From assembly GCA_038064475.1 (NCBI GenBank), contig JBBTTA010000001.1:187795-251794 (forward strand): a DNA stretch of 64,000 nucleotides, read 5' to 3'. This document shows positions 3,875-9,870 of the stretch, piece by piece. The DNA is from Patescibacteria group bacterium (GTDB lineage: Bacteria; Patescibacteriota; Minisyncoccia; Phycocordibacterales; EsbW-18). Below the pieces are notes generated by a model that was not told the origin of the DNA, did not search any database, and saw only the letters and a program-made list of their open reading frames with translations. Made by a program: the position numbers and the translations under genes. Every line of letters begins with the position of its first letter. The first letter of the stretch is position 1.

Positions 3875-4339
3875 TTAGAGCGCAAATTTCACGATGCGTC
3901 CAAGTTCTGTTCGTTCACCGAATTTTTGAACTGCACCGTCAATTAAACTACCCAACGTGCGTGATGGATCTTTGAAGAATGCTTCTTTAAGAAGTGCCTC
4001 GTTCCCCGCTGCAAGAAGTTCATCGTCTGTCGCAGCAACCTGCATAGCGATATCTTTTGCAATTTGCTGAAATTCTTCGTTGCGCGCAACGAAATCTGTT
4101 TCGCAGAGGAGTTCAACCATTGCACCCACAGCACCGTGGTTGTGAATGTATGCTTGCACCGTTCCTGAACCCAAATCGCGGCCTGCTTTCTTCGATGCAG
4201 TTAATGCCCCCTTCTCACGGAGAATATCCATAGCTTTTGTCATGTCACCATCCGCTTCCATCAATGCCTCGCGGCATACCATCATAGAGACGCCTGTAGC
4301 GTCACGGAGCTGCTTAATGTCTTGTGCAGTAACGGCCAT
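3875..4339 (-). CDS. tsf: Elongation factor Ts, short 154-aa form.
   Basis: AVTAQDIKQLRDATGVSMMVCREALMEADGDMTKAMDILREKG matches the EF-Ts N-terminal UBA-like domain. The gene sits downstream of rpsB, the classic rpsB-tsf arrangement. Confidence 0.85.
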   Translation of the reverse strand: MAVTAQDIKQLRDATGVSMMVCREALMEADGDMTKAMDILREKGALTASKKAGRDLGSGTVQAYIHNHGAVGAMVELLCETDFVARNEEFQQIAKDIAMQVAATDDELLAAGNEALLKEAFFKDPSRTLGSLIDGAVQKFGERTELGRIVKFAL

Positions 4340-4366: not shown

Positions 4367-5191
4367 TTACGCTCGCGGTGCCTCGCCCGTTTGGCTACGG
4401 CCAAGGGCGCGTTCACGACGTGGAGCACGTGAATGTGGCGCATCATCGCGTGTGCGAGAACGTGGAGCTTCAGGAACCACAATCTTTGGTGCATCCTTTG
4501 CGCCTTCACGGTAGCTCTCAACCAATCGGTCAACGAAGAATGCGATGCTGTGCACACTTGCATCGTTACCAGGAATCACGTGTGCAATTTTTGAAACATC
4601 ACAGTCTGAGTTTGCAAGCGCGATGATTGGAATACGCAATGTCATTGCTTCACGCACAACATTCTTTTCGTGCTTTGGATCAACAACAAACACAGCCCCA
4701 GGGAGTGAGCGCATTGGACGGAGACCACCAAATGTTGTTTCAAGACGCTTGATGTCGCGGTCAATCATGAGACGCTCTTTCTTTGTGTACTTCACGAGTG
4801 TTCCCTTCTCACGTTCATCCATGAGTGTCATGAGTTTTTCAACGCGCTTACGAATCAAAGCAAAGTTTGAAAGCGTACCACCCACATATCGTCCTGCAAC
4901 AAATGGTTGGTCAATTGCTTCACCTGCGCGACGAATTGCGCCTTGTGCTTCGAGTTTGCCACCGACAAAGAGAATTTGTTTTCCAACTTGAGCAAGGCCT
5001 TTTACGTAGCTTTCTACATCTGCGAGTGCTTCTACGCTCTTTTCAAGATCAAAGATATCGACACCGTTTTTTGCACCGAAGATGAACTTCTGTGCTGAAG
5101 GGTGGCGACGTGCTTTCGAATAGCCGTAATGAGCTCCTGTTGCAAAGAGCTTATCAACCATTGCTTTCGTGTCGTTTGAAACTGTAGTCAT
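4367..5191 (-). CDS. rpsB: 30S ribosomal protein S2 with a basic C-terminal extension.
   Basis: HYGYSKARRHPSAQKFIFGAKNGVDIFDLEKS and ...IPIIALANSDCD.. are S2 hallmarks. Confidence 0.9.
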   Translation of the reverse strand: MTTVSNDTKAMVDKLFATGAHYGYSKARRHPSAQKFIFGAKNGVDIFDLEKSVEALADVESYVKGLAQVGKQILFVGGKLEAQGAIRRAGEAIDQPFVAGRYVGGTLSNFALIRKRVEKLMTLMDEREKGTLVKYTKKERLMIDRDIKRLETTFGGLRPMRSLPGAVFVVDPKHEKNVVREAMTLRIPIIALANSDCDVSKIAHVIPGNDASVHSIAFFVDRLVESYREGAKDAPKIVVPEAPRSRTRDDAPHSRAPRRERALGRSQTGEAPRA

Positions 5192-5340
5192 TTGAATAAA
5201 TGGGGTTGATCCATTTTTTGGCTCCTCGGCTCGGAGATGAAAAAGTTACTTTTCCATCTCGCTCGCTCTACGTCGCCAATAAAAAGGCCCGTTTAGGGTA
5301 AAAGCACAATACCAAATTAGCGTGCTCTACGCAAGGTGCC

Positions 5341-6381
5341 TTAGGCTGCGTCCTCAGGGGTCATATCACCCGTGTATGCCGCCAAGCTGTCGATAATGCT
5401 AGGGTTTAGAAGAGTTTCTTTGAGCTTCTCGGTATTTCCACGACGTAAAAGTCCAAGGTATGACTGTGTCGTTCTAAAAGAAAACTCCTTTTCAAGTCGT
5501 CTCGACATCCTCCTTTTTGTCGTTGTCCTCAATACTCGGTGGTCAGGAAAATGTACCCATCCTAAGAAATCGACACCAGACGCAAGTGTTTTAATAAACA
5601 CTTTGTCAGGATGAGGTGCGAGTTTGAGTCGCTCTTCAAGAAAATCAGCAATTCTTGGAATCAACTCAGTAAGATAGTCTTTGTCATGAGATAGGACGAC
5701 AAAATCATCAGCGTACCGAATATAGTATTTTGCTTTGACTATGTGTTTCATCCACTGGTCGAATTCATTCATATAGATATTCACGAAAAGTTGTGAGGTG
5801 AGATTGCCTAGCGGCAGACCGACGCCGAGTCGCCCCACATAAAAACTTCCAGTAATCTCTTTGAGAAGCCCGAGTAACTCTCTGTCAAAAATATGTTTCT
5901 CTAGTATCTGTATCAGAATTTGGTGATCGACAGAAGCAAAGAACTTCCTGATGTCACACTTAAGAATCCAACATGTCCGAGTGTTATTTTTGCTCACTCT
6001 GTATCCAAATTGTTTGAATCGTTCAATTGCTTTATGTGTCCCCTTATTGAGACGACATGAATAGGAGTCCGCTATAAAACGTTTGTCGAAATAAAGATAC
6101 AGCTTTCTATAAATAGCATGGTGGAGAAGACGATCTTGGACAGTCGCCTTATGTATATTTCTTGGCTTTGGATCCGAAATGTTAAAAGCATCATAGCCTC
6201 CGTGACAATAGGTTCGTTGAGCAAGGTCGTGGTGGAGTTTCAATATGTTATCCATGAGTTTCCATTGAAAATCTTGCACGTCATTTTTTGACCGCTTCCC
6301 TTTTAAGAATTCGCGCCATGCGCCGAGAAGATTTTCGACGGAAATGATATCCTTGTAGTTATGAATGAAATTAAAAACCAT
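5341..6381 (-). CDS. DGR reverse transcriptase, Brt-like.
   Basis: The motifs are SVENLLGAWREF (cf. Brt TWENLLDAYRK), CRLNKGTHKAIERF (cf. YACRPDKGTHAGV), LKCDIRKFFASVDH, GLPLGNLTSQLFVNIY (the DGR-specific [I/L]GxxxSQ motif), RYADDFVV (the YxDD catalytic box) and GVDFLGWV. The last 15 aa derive from the duplicated prfA segment. Confidence 0.9.
   Translation of the reverse strand: MVFNFIHNYKDIISVENLLGAWREFLKGKRSKNDVQDFQWKLMDNILKLHHDLAQRTYCHGGYDAFNISDPKPRNIHKATVQDRLLHHAIYRKLYLYFDKRFIADSYSCRLNKGTHKAIERFKQFGYRVSKNNTRTCWILKCDIRKFFASVDHQILIQILEKHIFDRELLGLLKEITGSFYVGRLGVGLPLGNLTSQLFVNIYMNEFDQWMKHIVKAKYYIRYADDFVVLSHDKDYLTELIPRIADFLEERLKLAPHPDKVFIKTLASGVDFLGWVHFPDHRVLRTTTKRRMSRRLEKEFSFRTTQSYLGLLRRGNTEKLKETLLNPSIIDSLAAYTGDMTPEDAA
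5355..5399. repeat. Left direct repeat of the DGR insertion. It is a copy of the prfA 3' coding end that is read in frame as the RT C-terminus.
   Basis: CAGGGGTCATATCACCCGTGTATGCCGCCAAGCTGTCGATAATGC versus 8122-8166 differs at 1 position. It encodes IIDSLAAYTGDMTP in both ORFs. Confidence 0.8.
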
Positions 6382-6390
6382 ATAATAAAG

Positions 6391-6399
6391 CCCCCCCCC
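6391..6399. repeat. Homopolymeric C9 tract (G9 on the minus strand) in the 31-nt spacer between the divergent RT and avd start codons.
   Basis: Read directly. On the minus strand it forms the GAGGGGGGGGGC Shine-Dalgarno-like element 11 nt upstream of the RT ATG. Confidence 0.6.
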
Positions 6400-6412
6400 T
6401 CGATTAGTTTCA

Positions 6413-6757
6413 GTGGTTTTAAAGTTAAAAGATTGTTACGGAGTTTGGCAGCAGTACCTTCCCCACTTCCCGAAATCTCATCGTTTTACGTTAGGAAGCA
6501 AAATTGACGCTGTTTTTCTTGATGCTATCGAATCCTGTTTTTTTGCAAGCTATTCTTCCGGCCAGAAAAAAATAGATCTCGTTGATCAATCGATATCGAA
6601 GACAGATCTCACGAAGCTCCTACTCCAACTTGCTTGGGAAGTTCAGGCTCTGGATAACAATAAGTACGCGCACTTGAGCGAACTCTTAGGAGAGATTGGA
6701 AAGATGCTCGGAGGATGGAAACGACAACTCCTCAATAAAACTCCCGCCTCAAAGTAA
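6413..6757 (+). CDS. avd: Avd-like accessory variability determinant, a four-helix-bundle protein related to the 23S rRNA intervening-sequence protein family.
   Basis: Family signatures are YGVWQQY..FPKSHRFTLGSKIDAVFLDAIESCFFA...LSELLGEIGKMLGGWKRQLL, compared with LKVWQKA..FPKEERYGLTSQLRRAA..IAEG...EEIGKMLNGLIKSL. The gene is divergent from the RT and ends 22 nt before the TR. Confidence 0.7.
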   Translation: MVLKLKDCYGVWQQYLPHFPKSHRFTLGSKIDAVFLDAIESCFFASYSSGQKKIDLVDQSISKTDLTKLLLQLAWEVQALDNNKYAHLSELLGEIGKMLGGWKRQLLNKTPASK

Positions 6758-6778
6758 AGCGGGAGAACCGATGAAAGT

Positions 6779-6908
6779 GGCGAACGGCCAGGAACCGACA
6801 GGTGTCGTTCCAGTCGTCGTCCCGCCAGTTGAGGTTGAGGTTCCGCTTCGCGTCGTTCCTATTGAGGTACGGGACGTTGCGGTTGCCATTGACCAATCCG
6901 ACGGAGCC
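6779..6908 (-). repeat. DGR template repeat (TR). The sense strand is the minus strand, where the adenine-containing codons sit.
   Basis: The 130-nt segment is homologous to 7284-7416. On the minus strand the TR codons are AAC x7, AAT x2, GAC, AAG, AGG and ACC. The encoded peptide is GSVGLVNGNRNVPYLNRNDAKRNLNLNWRDDDWNDTCRFLAVR. Confidence 0.85.
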
Positions 6909-7151
6909 ATGTACGACGTGCCATCAGTACCACCACCCCTTGAACCACGTATCAATCGTAACAAAGTTTTTGGAGTTGTATCGTATTCGCGATCTTAAAA
7001 TATCGCAGAGCACATCGCACCAACTTTCTCTGGTTTTTATTCAGGACTCGGAAACACTCTTTCGACAGCCGTGACCGTCAAAACTCTCGCTCCCGAGCGT
7101 GCGAACAAACTATCTAAAGCCGTGACCGTAGATTTTTCGTCTGTTAGTTAC

Positions 7152-7159
7152 ATTATACA
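7152..7159 (-). promoter_or_regulatory. Extended -10 element (TGTATAAT) positioned to start the TR transcript just upstream of the TR.
   Basis: The reverse complement of 7152-7159 is TGTATAAT. It lies immediately after the hairpin terminator of the target gene. No clear -35 box is present. Confidence 0.35.
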
Positions 7160-7169
7160 AAAACGAAAG

Positions 7170-7199
7170 CCCGGCGCCACCTTGGTAGGTTGCGCCGGG
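7170..7199 (-). terminator. Hairpin (CCCGGCGC.ACC..GGTGGCGCCGGG) followed by CTTTCGTTTTTG on the minus strand. It is a candidate terminator for the DGR target gene.
   Basis: The stem is about 12 bp with 1 mismatch. It sits about 60 nt after the target stop, and a partial U-run follows. Confidence 0.4.
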
Positions 7200-7260
7200 A
7201 AGGTCCAAGACCAGAGTGCTCTACGCCTGAAGGCGTTGCAAAGGGTCAAAAACCAGAGAA

Positions 7261-7923
7261 CTACTTGCCTGCCTGCGCAGGCAGGCGAACGGCCAGGAAC
7301 CGACAGGCGACGCCCCAGCCGACGCCGTCCCGCCAGCGGAGGCCGAGGCTCCGCCCCGCGTCGTGCCCATGGAGGTACGGGACGCGGCGGTCGCCACCGA
7401 CCAAGCCGACGGAGCCGAGCGCGATCACCGGGAACTGTCGCTGAACCTCGGGGAAGCTTGCCCCGAAGGCGAGCAACTCTGCGATGGTCGCAGCGCGGTA
7501 TCCCGCCTTGTCGAGCTCACGCTCGACTTCGTCGGTGGTGGTGTTGCGGTTGAAGTGGAAGAGCTTCCCGTCCACCATGACCGTACCACCACCCGTGATC
7601 GGAAACCGCGCAGCGGTGATCTCGTTGTTCCGCCAGTCATACTTACCGGCGGCGATCATCTCCTCGAGCGACTTCCCGAAATCGATGGTGAAACGGCAGA
7701 TGCCCGTCGCGAGGTCGATCGCCGGAGCGAGGGGCGCGACGAGAGCGTTCACGAGGGCGTCGATGACGCGCTCCATGTCCGTCTTGCCTTTGTCGGTGAC
7801 GAGCGCATGAATGCGCTCGTTGTCCCAGCCGCGGGACAGAAGCCCTTTCACGAGTCCGAGTGCGAGCTGCATGAGCCAGCCTGCCCCGGAAATGATCGCT
7901 ACGGGAGTGTTCTTGCTTGCCAT
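7261..7923 (-). CDS. DGR target (variable) protein of 220 aa. The VR encodes residues about 171-214. GC content is high, about 60%.
   Basis: The ORF has an AAGGAG RBS and a consensus promoter. The C-terminal 44 aa (SVGLVGGDRRVPYLHGHDAGRSLGLRWRDGVGWGVACRFLAVRL) are encoded by the VR. The N-terminal about 170 aa belong to no family I recognise. Confidence 0.8.
   Translation of the reverse strand: MASKNTPVAIISGAGWLMQLALGLVKGLLSRGWDNERIHALVTDKGKTDMERVIDALVNALVAPLAPAIDLATGICRFTIDFGKSLEEMIAAGKYDWRNNEITAARFPITGGGTVMVDGKLFHFNRNTTTDEVERELDKAGYRAATIAELLAFGASFPEVQRQFPVIALGSVGLVGGDRRVPYLHGHDAGRSLGLRWRDGVGWGVACRFLAVRLPAQAGK
7267..7286 (-). promoter_or_regulatory. Perfect GC-rich palindrome (GCCTGCCTGCGCAGGCAGGC) immediately 3' of the VR and overlapping the target stop codon.
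   Basis: The 20-nt perfect inverted repeat was read directly. Its position matches the DNA hairpin/cruciform required for homing downstream of Bordetella phage VR1. Confidence 0.65.
7284..7416 (-). repeat. DGR variable repeat (VR) at the 3' end of the target gene.
   Basis: The VR differs from the TR at about 25 positions, all at TR adenines (A to G, C or T on the minus strand). One 3-nt in-frame indel is present. The 3'-terminal about 23 nt are identical to the TR and look IMH-like. Confidence 0.85.
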
Positions 7924-7989
7924 CGTCGTACTCCTTTTTCTGACGTGCTCCCCACCCTCACCACAATGGTTCGGGCCTCGAGCTTGTCT

Positions 7990-8040
7990 GTTGGTTACAG
8001 CTTTTAAGGCACTACAGATGCTCTAAAAGCTGTAACCAAC
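7990..8040 (-). promoter_or_regulatory. 17-bp stem hairpin in the 5' UTR of the DGR target gene.
   Basis: GTTGGTTACAGCTTTTA ...15 nt loop... TAAAAGCTGTAACCAAC. The two arms are perfect complements. Confidence 0.5.
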
Positions 8041-8071
8041 GAGTAGTTCTCTCAATGTTCTTCTGCTGACC

Positions 8072-8100
8072 ATTATACACCTATTATGAGTGTATGTCAA
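8072..8100 (-). promoter_or_regulatory. Consensus sigma70 promoter (TTGACA, 17 nt spacer, TATAAT) driving the DGR target gene.
   Basis: The minus strand reads ctaTTGACAtacactcataataggtgTATAATggt. It sits 12 nt beyond the prfA stop. Confidence 0.6.
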
Positions 8101-8107
8101 TAGTCTG

Positions 8108-9082
8108 TTATTCTTGATCCACAGGTGTCATATCACCCGTGTATGCCGCCAAGCTGTCGATAATGCGGTCCATATTGCCTCCCAAGATGCCTGGAAGGTT
8201 TGACCAGCTCTCTTTGATGCGGTGGTCGGTAATGCGATCCTGTGGGAAGTTGTACGTGCGAATTTTTTCAGAACGGTCCCCTGTTCCAATCTGGGCCTTT
8301 CGCTCACTTGAGAGCTTTTTGGCATCTTCTTCAACTTTGAGCACATCAAGCTTTGCCTGAAGAATTTCAAAGGCTTTCTCACGGTTTCTCTGCTGGCTTC
8401 GCTCTGATTGTGATTTCACAATAATCCCCGTTGGTGTGTGTACAAGACGAACAGCTGTTTCCACTTTGTTTACGTTCTGTCCTCCCGCACCACCTGAACG
8501 CGTAAATGTCATTTCAACATCTGCCATATTAATCGGAACCATTCCTTTTGCGCGCATAGGAAGGATTGCAACTGATGCAGTTGATGTATGTACACGTCCC
8601 ATCTTTTCTGTAGCGGGAATTCGCTGTACACGATGAATACCTGTTTCAAATTGGAGTTCCTTGTACACGTCTTTTCCTTTTATTTCAAATGAGGCGTCTT
8701 TGTAGCCACCCATCGTTGCACGCGCTTCATCGACAACTGACGATGACCACCCTTTCCTCTCGGCGTACTTTCGATACATGTTTGCAAGTTCTTCAGCAAA
8801 AAGTGCCGCCTCTTCTCCGCCAGCGCCTGCACGCACTTCAAGAATAATTTCATTTGGAAATTCATCCTCTTCTTTTTCACTCTCAAGAATGCCTTTGATC
8901 TGTCCTTCGATAAAAGCATATTGCTCATCAATGCGAAGAATGTCTTCCTTTGCGAGATCTGCGAGTAGAGGATCATCCCCCGCTGCCGCTTCAGCTTCGG
9001 CACGCTCCTTTTGCAGACGCTCTAATTCAAGCGCTAAGTAGGCAGTTGTATGATTTTTTTTGAGTTCGTCGAGATCCATCAC
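8108..9082 (-). CDS. prfA: Peptide chain release factor 1.
   Basis: The GGQ motif (RSGGAGGQNVNKVETAVRL), the RF1-type PAT tripeptide (RIPATEKMGRVHTS) and the RTYNFPQDRITDHRI C-terminal region are all present. Confidence 0.9.
   Translation of the reverse strand: MMDLDELKKNHTTAYLALELERLQKERAEAEAAAGDDPLLADLAKEDILRIDEQYAFIEGQIKGILESEKEEDEFPNEIILEVRAGAGGEEAALFAEELANMYRKYAERKGWSSSVVDEARATMGGYKDASFEIKGKDVYKELQFETGIHRVQRIPATEKMGRVHTSTASVAILPMRAKGMVPINMADVEMTFTRSGGAGGQNVNKVETAVRLVHTPTGIIVKSQSERSQQRNREKAFEILQAKLDVLKVEEDAKKLSSERKAQIGTGDRSEKIRTYNFPQDRITDHRIKESWSNLPGILGGNMDRIIDSLAAYTGDMTPVDQE
8122..8166. repeat. Right direct repeat. This is the authentic prfA 3' coding end.
   Basis: It matches 5355-5399 at 44 of 45 nt. 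Confidence 0.8.
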
Positions 9083-9336
9083 GTTAGAGACAGGAAACGT
9101 TTGAGACGATTCTTGATATACCGTTCTCCCATTCCTGATTTTAAATATTTTTCCCTTGCCCTTGCGTCATCCTCATTATGGCATGCCTCGTAGTATATAA
9201 CCGACCAAGGAGTATATCTTTTTGTCCAATAACTTTTACCTTTGTTATGTTCATTCAAACGTTTCCGTAAATCTTTCGTTACTCCCGTATACAGTTTGTC
9301 TGCCTTTTTACTTTTTAGAATATATACGTAAAACAT
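9079..9336 (-). CDS. GIY-YIG nuclease-domain protein of 85 aa.
   Basis: MFYVYILKSKKADKLYTGVTKDLRKRLNEHN...WTKRYTPWSVIYYE is the GIY-YIG/UPF0213 signature. It overlaps the prfA start by 4 nt. Confidence 0.7.
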   Translation of the reverse strand: MFYVYILKSKKADKLYTGVTKDLRKRLNEHNKGKSYWTKRYTPWSVIYYEACHNEDDARAREKYLKSGMGERYIKNRLKRFLSLT

Positions 9337-9423
9337 ACTGTATGGTCTCTAACGTGATCCATAGATCAATGCTAGCACAGAGAAAGCGCCGCCCGCTTCA
9401 TGCGGACGGCGCTTTCAAAAACG

Positions 9424-9699
9424 TTACGCTTCTGTCTTCTTAGGAGCTCGTGGCTTCTTTGTTGCCGCAACCTTCTTCACGCTCTCGCGCTTTGATGTCG
9501 CAACACCCTGACGAGTCTTGAACTTCTCAAGACGGCCGGCGAGGATCTTCTTACTGTCGTCCCCGATATAGAACGGATGGCACGCAGAACACACTTCAAC
9601 ATCAATAGTTTCCTTGGTTGAACCAACCGTAAACGTGTTCCCACAGGCGCACTTAACAGCCGCCTTTGGGAAATATGTTGGGTGTATATCGGTCTTCAT
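9424..9699 (-). CDS. rpmE: 50S ribosomal protein L31. The start is at the internal Met of the 138-aa ORF.
   Basis: MKTDIHPTYFPKAAVKCACGNTFTVGSTKETIDVEVCSACHPFY is the L31 signature with its CxxC...C zinc ribbon. A Lys-rich C-terminal extension follows. Confidence 0.8.
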   Translation of the reverse strand: MKTDIHPTYFPKAAVKCACGNTFTVGSTKETIDVEVCSACHPFYIGDDSKKILAGRLEKFKTRQGVATSKRESVKKVAATKKPRAPKKTEA

Positions 9700-9764
9700 A
9701 TAAAGTAGAGGTTGGAAGTTAGAGGTTGGAGATTGGTACACGGAACCACCTAACAGCCGAAGCA

Positions 9765-9794
9765 TACTAGCACAAAATATGCGTTTTCTGCAAG
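9765..9794 (-). promoter_or_regulatory. Sigma70-like promoter (TTGCAG, 18 nt spacer, TAGTAT) for rpmE.
   Basis: The minus strand reads TTGCAGaaaacgcatattttgtgcTAGTAT, about 60 nt upstream of the rpmE ATG. Confidence 0.4.
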
Positions 9795-9870
9795 TTCCCA
9801 GTTCTTTTTTCTTTACGGTAGAGCGAGCATACTCTTCCAATCCTTCTTTCTTTACGGTGGAGCGAGCTTG

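Follow-up and report, generated by a model that had tools for sequence, protein, structure and literature searches.

A diversity-generating retroelement cassette bounded by two copies of the prfA 3′ end in a groundwater Patescibacteria genome

We analysed a locus in a Patescibacteria genome from the Hainich groundwater well H41, at which a diversity-generating retroelement (DGR) adjoins prfA, the gene for release factor 1, and the 3′ end of prfA is found on both sides of the retroelement. The window, by which we mean the whole 64,000-nucleotide stretch that was analysed (GenBank assembly GCA_038064475.1, contig JBBTTA010000001.1, positions 187,795 to 251,794), belongs to a 324-kb contig with 62x coverage. 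Read in the direction of the minus strand, the order is rpmE, a GIY-YIG open reading frame (ORF), prfA, a promoter, a leader hairpin, the DGR target gene, the template repeat (TR), the accessory gene avd, the reverse transcriptase (RT) gene, a 149-nt spacer, rpsB and tsf. Pfam matches to RVT_1, bAvd, PCRF and RF-1, S2, EF-Ts and L31 confirm the identity of the encoded proteins, and the prfA product is 100% identical to a protein of one Patescibacteria metagenome-assembled genome (MAG). The features on which the argument depends are given here in window positions.

9424-9840 (-): rpmE, with a Pfam match to L31
8108-9079 (-): prfA, release factor 1, 323 aa, intact (Pfam PCRF 4e-49, RF-1 1e-38)
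8108-8166 (-): right repeat, attL-like, inside the intact prfA; core at 8127-8166, with a diverged four-codon tail and TAA at 8108-8122 next to the element
8072-8100 (-): promoter of the target gene, TTGACA-17-TATAAT, whose -35 element starts 7 nt past the prfA stop
7990-8040 (-): leader hairpin 5′ of the target ORF, 22-nt arms and a 7-nt loop (inverted repeat I1, 91% complementary)
7261-7923 (-): DGR target gene, 220 aa, with the variable repeat (VR) at its 3′ end (from the ORF list)
7284-7416 (-): VR, aligned to TR, ending 21 nt before the target stop
6779-6908 (-): TR, with the AAC-rich coding frame VNGNRNVPYLNRNDAKRNLNLNWRDDDWND
6413-6757 (+): avd, accessory gene, 114 aa (Pfam bAvd 3e-15)
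5341-6381 (-): DGR RT, 346 aa (Pfam RVT_1 7e-22)
5341-5399 (-): left repeat, attR-like, a prfA 3′ end (...IIDSLAAYTGDMTPEDAA and stop) displaced by 2767 nt (alignment A2)
5192-5340 (-): ancestral prfA-rpsB spacer (alignment A2), about 85 nt longer than in relatives and including a hairpin
4367-5191 (-): rpsB (Pfam Ribosomal_S2), directly 3′ of prfA in every related genome

Between the repeats stands a DGR that is minimal but complete and has its own sigma-70 promoter. This segment holds the promoter, the target gene with its VR, TR, avd and the RT gene, and every ORF there is one of these DGR parts, as the original prediction had proposed; with one repeat copy included, the segment (approximately 5400-8107) measures 2.8 kb. 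Its assignment to the DGRs is based on the type of RT, in which the motifs LGNLTSQ and YADD are invariant in an alignment with 15 homologues (alignment A1), on a TR and VR that differ at TR adenines only, on the position of VR at the 3′ end of the target gene, and on Avd. The avd gene lies on the plus strand, opposite to RT, TR and target, which corrects an earlier description.

A direct repeat of 45 nt, with 44 of 45 positions equal, had been noted at 5355-5399 and 8122-8166. The repeat is real, and its extent proved somewhat longer: 47 of 49 nt are equal between 5351-5399 and 8118-8166, around an exact core of 40 nt (5360-5399 and 8127-8166), at a spacing of 2767 nt. Alignment of the copies with their flanks shows that similarity begins abruptly at GC/ATTATC, is perfect over 40 nt and then decays up to the stop codons. 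The 40-mer, allowing up to three mismatches, has only two sites in the window and 0 matches in 100 shuffles, and none is expected by chance.

The right copy, read on the minus strand, codes for the C-terminus of the prfA product, ...IIDSLAAYTGDMTPVDQE and stop (in a longer reading, the end of the intact release factor 1 is ...NMDRIIDSLAAYTGDMTPVDQE and stop). All 8 differences between the copies fall in the last 24 of 64 nt, with 0 in the 40-nt block, and the last 15 nt, stop included, match at 9 of 15 positions. Despite this decay, each tail runs for four codons after a proline and reaches TAA at the same codon position. The left tail reads E-D-A-A and the right V-D-Q-E; both have an aspartate at position 2, and both show the acidic or small-residue pattern of relatives, whose prfA products end in ...GDMT[AP]EDAD, EDTE or EDVD, or in ...GDMTPEE, where that of the window ends in VDQE instead. 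Because the tails share their length, the aspartate and the acidic or small pattern, we read the duplicated unit as the entire prfA end through its stop, 59 nt in all, made up of the 40-nt identical block and a diverged tail. With the differences confined to the tail, a junction of two related gene ends at an identical block accounts for the pattern better than drift in a duplicate does. A like gradient is seen between true orthologues: the related contigs L091 and L092 are 92.4% identical over prfA (7.6% differing), yet 3 of their last 12 nt differ. A relation between the two prfA copies like that between TR and VR was ruled out, as the two mismatches would point in opposite directions as to which copy was the template.

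The left copy is read in frame as the end of the RT ORF, ...ETLLNPS-IIDSLAAYTGDMTPEDAA and stop, and the proposal that it forms the C-terminal tail of the RT was thus borne out (...NPS-IIDSLAAYTGDMTPEDAA). RT residues 329-346, 18 aa in all, are the displaced prfA tail. The 15 RT homologues (65-73% identity) end near residue 325-335 and do not have the tail (alignment A1). Since they stop about 18 aa earlier, their alignment shows that the RT tail is derived from the host, the RT ORF lacking a stop of its own and terminating in displaced prfA codons.

We next turn to genomes that lack the element. Ten related contigs (L005-L010 and L091-L094) carry rpmE-prfA-rpsB-tsf with no DGR, prfA standing directly before the spacer and rpsB; this is the arrangement that the original prediction had expected of an empty site. 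Among relatives, prfA of P0002-P0004 is 83-85% identical to that of the window, and prfA of P0241, P0242, P0244 and P0246 are members of its 90%-identity cluster. Alignment A2 shows collinearity with five empty sites for the left copy together with its stop and the spacer (from 5340 down to 5192). The tail of that copy, GAGGACGCAGCCTAA, agrees with GAAGACGCAGATTAA of L092 at 12 of 15 positions, and 3′ of it come the conserved blocks CTTGCGT and then TTTGGTATTGTG. In alignment A3, the cassette promoter comes directly after the tail of the right copy, and this promoter sequence is not represented in the empty sites. These alignments show the cassette to be an insertion relative to the ten related contigs. 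Given the collinearity of the left copy with empty sites, stop and spacer included, they likewise show which terminus is ancestral: the left copy (5341-5399) is the displaced original end of prfA, and the tail of the working prfA (8108-8122) is on the side of the element. In none of the other RT-carrying loci surveyed is a DGR located at prfA.

Both junctions are found repeatedly. The junction of RT tail, spacer and rpsB is the same in five independent assemblies, the junction of prfA (ending in VDQE) with the cassette was found again in several Hainich H41 assemblies, and an NCBI MAG has the gene order of the window. Logan contigs (k=31) end exactly at the bounding repeat, as they might if a shared 40-mer had joined two genomes during assembly. 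Such an artefact is extremely improbable, as the junctions recur in independent assemblies and in several samples, and as both the 324-kb contig at 62x and the MAG with identical gene order contain the arrangement.

We favour, with a probability of roughly 55%, the reading that the cassette is an islet without an integrase, brought in by att-type (Campbell) recombination by way of a surrogate prfA end carried on the element. We infer this mechanism from the comparison of the tails, from the pattern of synonymous changes and the integrase stump at a related locus (L171, below), from the variable lengths of the bounding repeats, and from the lack of transposon features. The cassette would have come into the lineage as one unit, within the last 20 codons of prfA. 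The incoming DNA would have been circular or circularisable and would already have held a copy of the end of prfA that served as a surrogate, in the manner of attP. A single crossover of the Campbell type with the chromosomal prfA, within the 40-nt identical block, would then give two products: attL, consisting of the host prfA with the element's tail (VDQE and stop), and attR, consisting of the RT with the host tail (EDAA and stop) and the spacer. The recombinase is not encoded in the cassette. It might be a tyrosine integrase that has been lost or that acts in trans, as for cis-mobilisable elements (CIMEs), or host homologous recombination might have acted on the short identical block. The empty-site junction expected from such a crossover would read prfA, 40-mer, CCCTGAGGACGCAGCCTAA, spacer, and the circle junction RT end, 40-mer, ACCTGTGGATCAAGAATAA, promoter.

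We gathered loci with related RTs, 80 from genomes, 80 from metagenomes and 80 from viruses, and scanned the approximately 160 genome and metagenome loci, about 75 of which had enough flank, for direct repeats that pair a copy 5′ of the cassette with one at the RT stop. Cassette-bracketing repeats were about fourfold enriched within 700 nt of the RT stop, and after inspection four loci shared the pattern of the window (L171, L036, L067 and L106). Among the viral loci, only four reached at least 57% identity and none was informative.

In L171 (Nealsonbacteria, Crystal Geyser), the repeat that bounds the cassette is 60 nt long (49/60) and covers the 3′ terminus of gap; its second copy begins 20 nt past the RT stop. 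Six of the 8 changed codons are synonymous, and the two copies consequently look like gene ends under selection, one not simply a decaying duplicate of the other. Just inside the repeat, a 53-aa open frame (...MGHNSVDSSRIYT...) lies in the interval from the gap terminator to the target promoter; it aligns with the catalytic C-terminal part of PF00589 (positions 131-168 of 172, E=5.8e-5) and is a tyrosine-recombinase remnant. A relative of this locus (L176, GAPDH 83% identical) has gap, then a small ORF, then acs, and no DGR. In L036 (Uhrbacteria), the repeat is perfect over its 41 nt and is made up of the gyrA stop codon with its terminator; the repeat-bounded islet also holds an AbrB-like/RelE-like toxin-antitoxin pair (L036:8000-8515), the stop of the toxin ORF being the TAG of the second repeat copy. 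L067 has a 39-nt intergenic repeat (36/39) around a 2.9-kb cassette with the same promoter motif as the window, and L106 a perfect 22-nt repeat (22/22) with the second copy 13 nt past the RT stop. The repeats of the five islets are unrelated in sequence, with lengths of 22, 39, 41, 49-64 and 60 nt, and no terminal motif is shared across the five apart from the promoter.

Other candidates were rejected on inspection. The 91-nt repeat of L048 encloses HU, RNase Y, ClpP and trigger factor; the cassette of L045 lies between two different tRNA-Leu genes; the repeats of L155 and L021 are cassette-internal leader or promoter sequence; and those of L121 and L089 are dispersed hairpin repeats. The RT most similar to that of the window (73% identical; L095:4707-8117) sits between pilB (T2SSE) and pilC (T2SSF), adjoined by a Y1 (IS200-like) transposase with perfect 17-nt hairpin repeats around it, and has no bounding direct repeats. 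In L133 (5310-5531), a truncated tyrosine-recombinase C-terminus (...AGHKSIETTQRYL...) is found 1.1 kb 3′ of a related DGR RT.

The locus has two marks of an integrative island, presence or absence at a defined site and direct repeats of which one lies inside the intact target gene, and it lacks the further mark of an integrase. A search of the related loci by motif and phmmer found full-length integrases in L043 and L049, not adjacent to the cassette, and remnants in L133 and L171; no intact islet with both integrase and DGR occurs among the related loci surveyed.

Several points weigh against entry by att-type recombination. In agreement with the original prediction, no integrase or integrase remnant was found in the window cassette, either among its ORFs or in a six-frame read of its non-coding parts, and a motif scan of the 64-kb window, a test of low sensitivity, found no recombinase. 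In the Hainich population no allele of the empty site or of the circle was seen: the 90% clusters contain neither a prfA with the EDAA tail nor an RT with the VDQE tail, and the contigs bearing rpsB (exact rpsB look-up) with enough upstream sequence all show the RT junction. There is no close copy of the element elsewhere (the RT is alone in its 90% cluster, and the nearest other RT shares 73% identity), so that the free ends of the element cannot be read. By our own estimate, an identical 40-nt block beside a tail with 8 of 24 differences would be about 1% likely if divergence were even; a need for an identical block at the crossover would explain the perfect 40-mer beside a diverged tail, and otherwise this point too counts against the mechanism. 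The diversity of the targets (prfA, gap, gyrA, intergenic) would call for several integrase specificities, or for inefficient recombination on blocks as short as 22 nt. Finally, in L171 it is the in-gene copy that resembles relatives, which leaves the direction of exchange there ambiguous.

The original prediction had proposed either a target-site duplication or an att-type repeat. Insertion with repeats stands, and the tails and L171 favour the att-type alternative over duplication in place, which we regard as possible, if on the improbable side. Here the element would have inserted within the end of prfA or just after its stop by cut-and-fill with a 40-64-nt stagger, which would have duplicated the host prfA end, and the last codons of the working copy would have diverged afterwards. 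The sharp-edged perfect repeats of L036 (41/41) and L106 (22/22) are as such a process would leave them, as are repeats whose sequence differs at each site, and the missing integrase also speaks for it. Drift after duplication, however, would have had to confine all 8 differences to the final 24 of 64 nt and to leave untouched the 40 nt that are free of constraint in the RT-side copy, which we estimate at about 0.4-1%, and the 6 of 8 synonymous codons of L171 would have a probability of about 0.4% in a decaying copy (binomial estimate). A single transposase would moreover produce repeats of fixed length, not of 22 to 64 nt, and neither a transposase nor inverted repeats at the cassette ends were found. 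The structure could also have arisen in another strain and have been brought in ready-made, by homologous replacement of a larger rpmE-prfA-DGR-rpsB segment after uptake of DNA, in which case the window would be silent on the primary insertion event. The copies agree at 40 of 40 nt while each is about 25-30% different from its closest relatives there, which argues that donor and recipient were very close, and a second lineage-specific insertion, the GIY-YIG element, lies on the other side of prfA. Sliding-window identity showed no breakpoint, at the poor resolution given by relatives that are only 80-90% identical, and import would move the origin of the repeats elsewhere without explaining them; we consider it decidedly unlikely.

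On the question whether the route was retrohoming-like or recombination-mediated, which the original prediction had also raised, the evidence favours recombination. For RNA-mediated mobility, a transcript running from prfA through the cassette would have been reverse-transcribed, and the cDNA target-primed at a nick in prfA and joined by prfA homology at its other end, leaving a duplication of variable length as in non-LTR (long terminal repeat) retrotransposons. The element has an RT gene, the duplications vary in length (22-64 nt) at unrelated sites, and the junction of the RT end with prfA is non-homologous while the other lies within prfA homology, all of which would suit this route. However, the RT of a DGR, together with Avd, miscopies adenines, as established for the DGR of the Bordetella phage BPP-1, and with 24 of 31 TR adenines changed in VR, copying of the whole cassette by such an enzyme would wreck it. 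As the cassette also contains its own promoter and an avd in antisense, a retrohoming-like route appears very unlikely. It is opposed further by the RT domain, which is RVT_1 alone with no endonuclease domain, by the absence of an intron-like RNA (Rfam gives only tRNA in the window), and by the recombinase remnant of L171. A broader proposal would make the minimal Patescibacteria DGR cassettes autonomous, integrase-free mobile units that settle in the 3′ ends of essential genes. They might move through their own RT, target-primed at one end and joined by homology at the other with duplications of variable length, or by a single crossover on short homology after DNA uptake, and the duplicated or surrogate gene end would keep the host gene functional. 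This we hold to be unlikely.

Integration by att-type recombination at a surrogate gene end, the reading we prefer, has known parallels. Integrative elements whose attP carries a surrogate 3′ gene end include tRNA and tmRNA islands and integrators at the ends of protein genes. As in these, the target gene of the window is kept whole, its original end is at the far junction, and the block at the crossover is identical with divergence beyond it; unlike these, the window element has no integrase, and the displaced end is translated within a gene of the element, the RT. CIMEs are att-flanked islands that can be mobilised in cis and have lost their recombination module. The window islet resembles them in being flanked by att-like repeats without an integrase and presumably mobilisable only in trans, and L171 has a truncated integrase inside its repeats; CIMEs, however, are defined by kinship to a known integrative and conjugative element (ICE) or integrative and mobilisable element whose integrase acts on them, and no such partner is known for the window islet. 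With the BPP-1 DGR the window shares an RT with GxxxSQ and YxDD, Avd, adenine-only TR/VR differences and a VR at the 3′ end of the target, and differs in the orientation of avd opposite to RT, in a target of a Patescibacteria-dominated family of about 200 aa without a recognised domain, and in residing in a cellular chromosome and not a phage. The insertion of an island at the 3′ end of a gene, with att-like repeats, is thus a known type of event. What is new in the window is an island of DGR parts only, without an integrase, in an essential translation gene of a streamlined genome, with the displaced end translated as an RT tail.

Horizontal transfer of DGRs has been widely inferred (PMC5758913; PMC8144416), and it has been demonstrated for Bacteroides ICEs that integrate at tRNA-Lys and leave direct repeats (10.1101/2024.11.15.621889). 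As in the window, the DGRs of these ICEs and of the Legionella pneumophila Corby island are carried into a gene 3′ end with direct repeats, there as cargo (10.1101/2024.11.15.621889; PMC5758913). Those elements are tens of kb long and have an integrase and transfer genes, whereas the window unit is 2.8 kb of DGR parts only, and its target, unlike their sites, is a protein-coding housekeeping gene in Patescibacteria. In a full-text literature search for DGRs together with target-site duplications, direct repeats or integrases, and in candidate-phyla bacteria (the survey of Paul et al., 2017, being outside its scope), bare repeat-bounded DGR cassettes were not described, and the vehicles documented for DGRs were phages and large conjugative islands.

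Patescibacteria carry DGRs unusually often, with a patchy distribution that suggests frequent transfer. A recent insertion in the end of prfA affords a rare view of how DGR cassettes move. The locus offers a bare cassette with both junctions, a comparison with empty sites and a displaced host end, and the family adds four cassettes with analogous boundaries, one with an integrase stump, giving a testable anatomy for how cassettes may enter streamlined genomes without harm to essential genes. It also supplies a signature by which more cassettes could be found, namely an upstream gene end that is repeated right past the RT stop.

The DGR itself carries signs of activity. TR and VR differ by 24 mismatches, all at TR adenines, 16 of them to G, 5 to C and 3 to T, and the TR AAC codons correspond to the variable codons of VR; the substitutions in VR are biased towards G or C (21 of 24). 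Two Hainich H41 samples compared over 910 nt (7201-8110) differ only at 7310 and 7313. As both are TR-adenine sites, these two positions indicate that the DGR has diversified recently. VR is one codon longer than TR, with GAC GGC GTC GGC (around 7320-7325) against GAC GAC GAC in TR (around 6815-6819), and the extra codon is kept in both population variants, which differ at adenine sites nearer the VR 3′ end; partial homing events or slippage of the RT on the GAC repeat would fit this.

The target belongs to a Patescibacteria-dominated family of proteins of about 200 aa with 4469 representative clusters at E<=1e-3. It has no Pfam match, and a single-sequence AlphaFold model, considered for the question of a C-type-lectin-like fold, is unusable (mean pLDDT 37). 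Its promoter is the sole 12/12 consensus match in 5100-9500, and the promoter motif TAGGTGTATAAT is found also in the L067 and L106 cassettes. GC content is 0.59-0.74 over the target gene of the window (up to 0.74 across VR), against about 0.47 in the flanking host genes. Across the family, targets have 0.55-0.65 and RT and avd 0.32-0.48 (targets at 7261-7923 of the window, L067:1165-1935, L095:5580-6221, L171:4523-5140 and L036:5501-6160), and this recurrence of the GC excess makes the cassette compositionally mosaic. Public gene calls on the contig place a 212-aa ORF at 7363-8007 (+), antisense to the true target, and the target at 7261-7923 (-) is consequently missing from the deposited annotation.

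Between rpmE and prfA lies the GIY-YIG ORF (9079-9336, minus strand, 85 aa), bracketed by perfect 14-nt inverted repeats (ATCACGTTAGAGAC and GTCTCTAACGTGAT) within an element that spans 9078-9358. Its insertion point is the prfA start codon itself, ATGGATC stands at either side, and no relative has the element. At L171 (1400-1645), a 61%-identical GIY-YIG ORF with 19-nt inverted repeats abuts the ATG of the next gene, the two sets of repeats having the core CGTTAGA[GA]AC in common. To judge by these two copies, the GIY-YIG ORFs look like a family of mini-elements of about 280 bp bounded by inverted repeats. A role of GIY-YIG as the mobilising nuclease of the cassettes was rejected, as homologues occur near 2 of the 5 repeat-bounded islets but elsewhere too, a weak association.

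Three smaller features may be added. About 85 nt of the spacer (5192-5280) are not present in L091, L092 and L009, and include a hairpin (GAGATGGAAAAG and CTTTTTCATCTC) just 5′ of rpsB. A 14-nt match links 5319-5332 to 7213-7226 (AGCGTGCTCTACGC and AGAGTGCTCTACGC), that is, the spacer past the displaced prfA stop to the sequence past the target stop, and may be due to chance. EF-Ts (3875-4339) is a short form of only 154 aa, and it is short in all relatives too.

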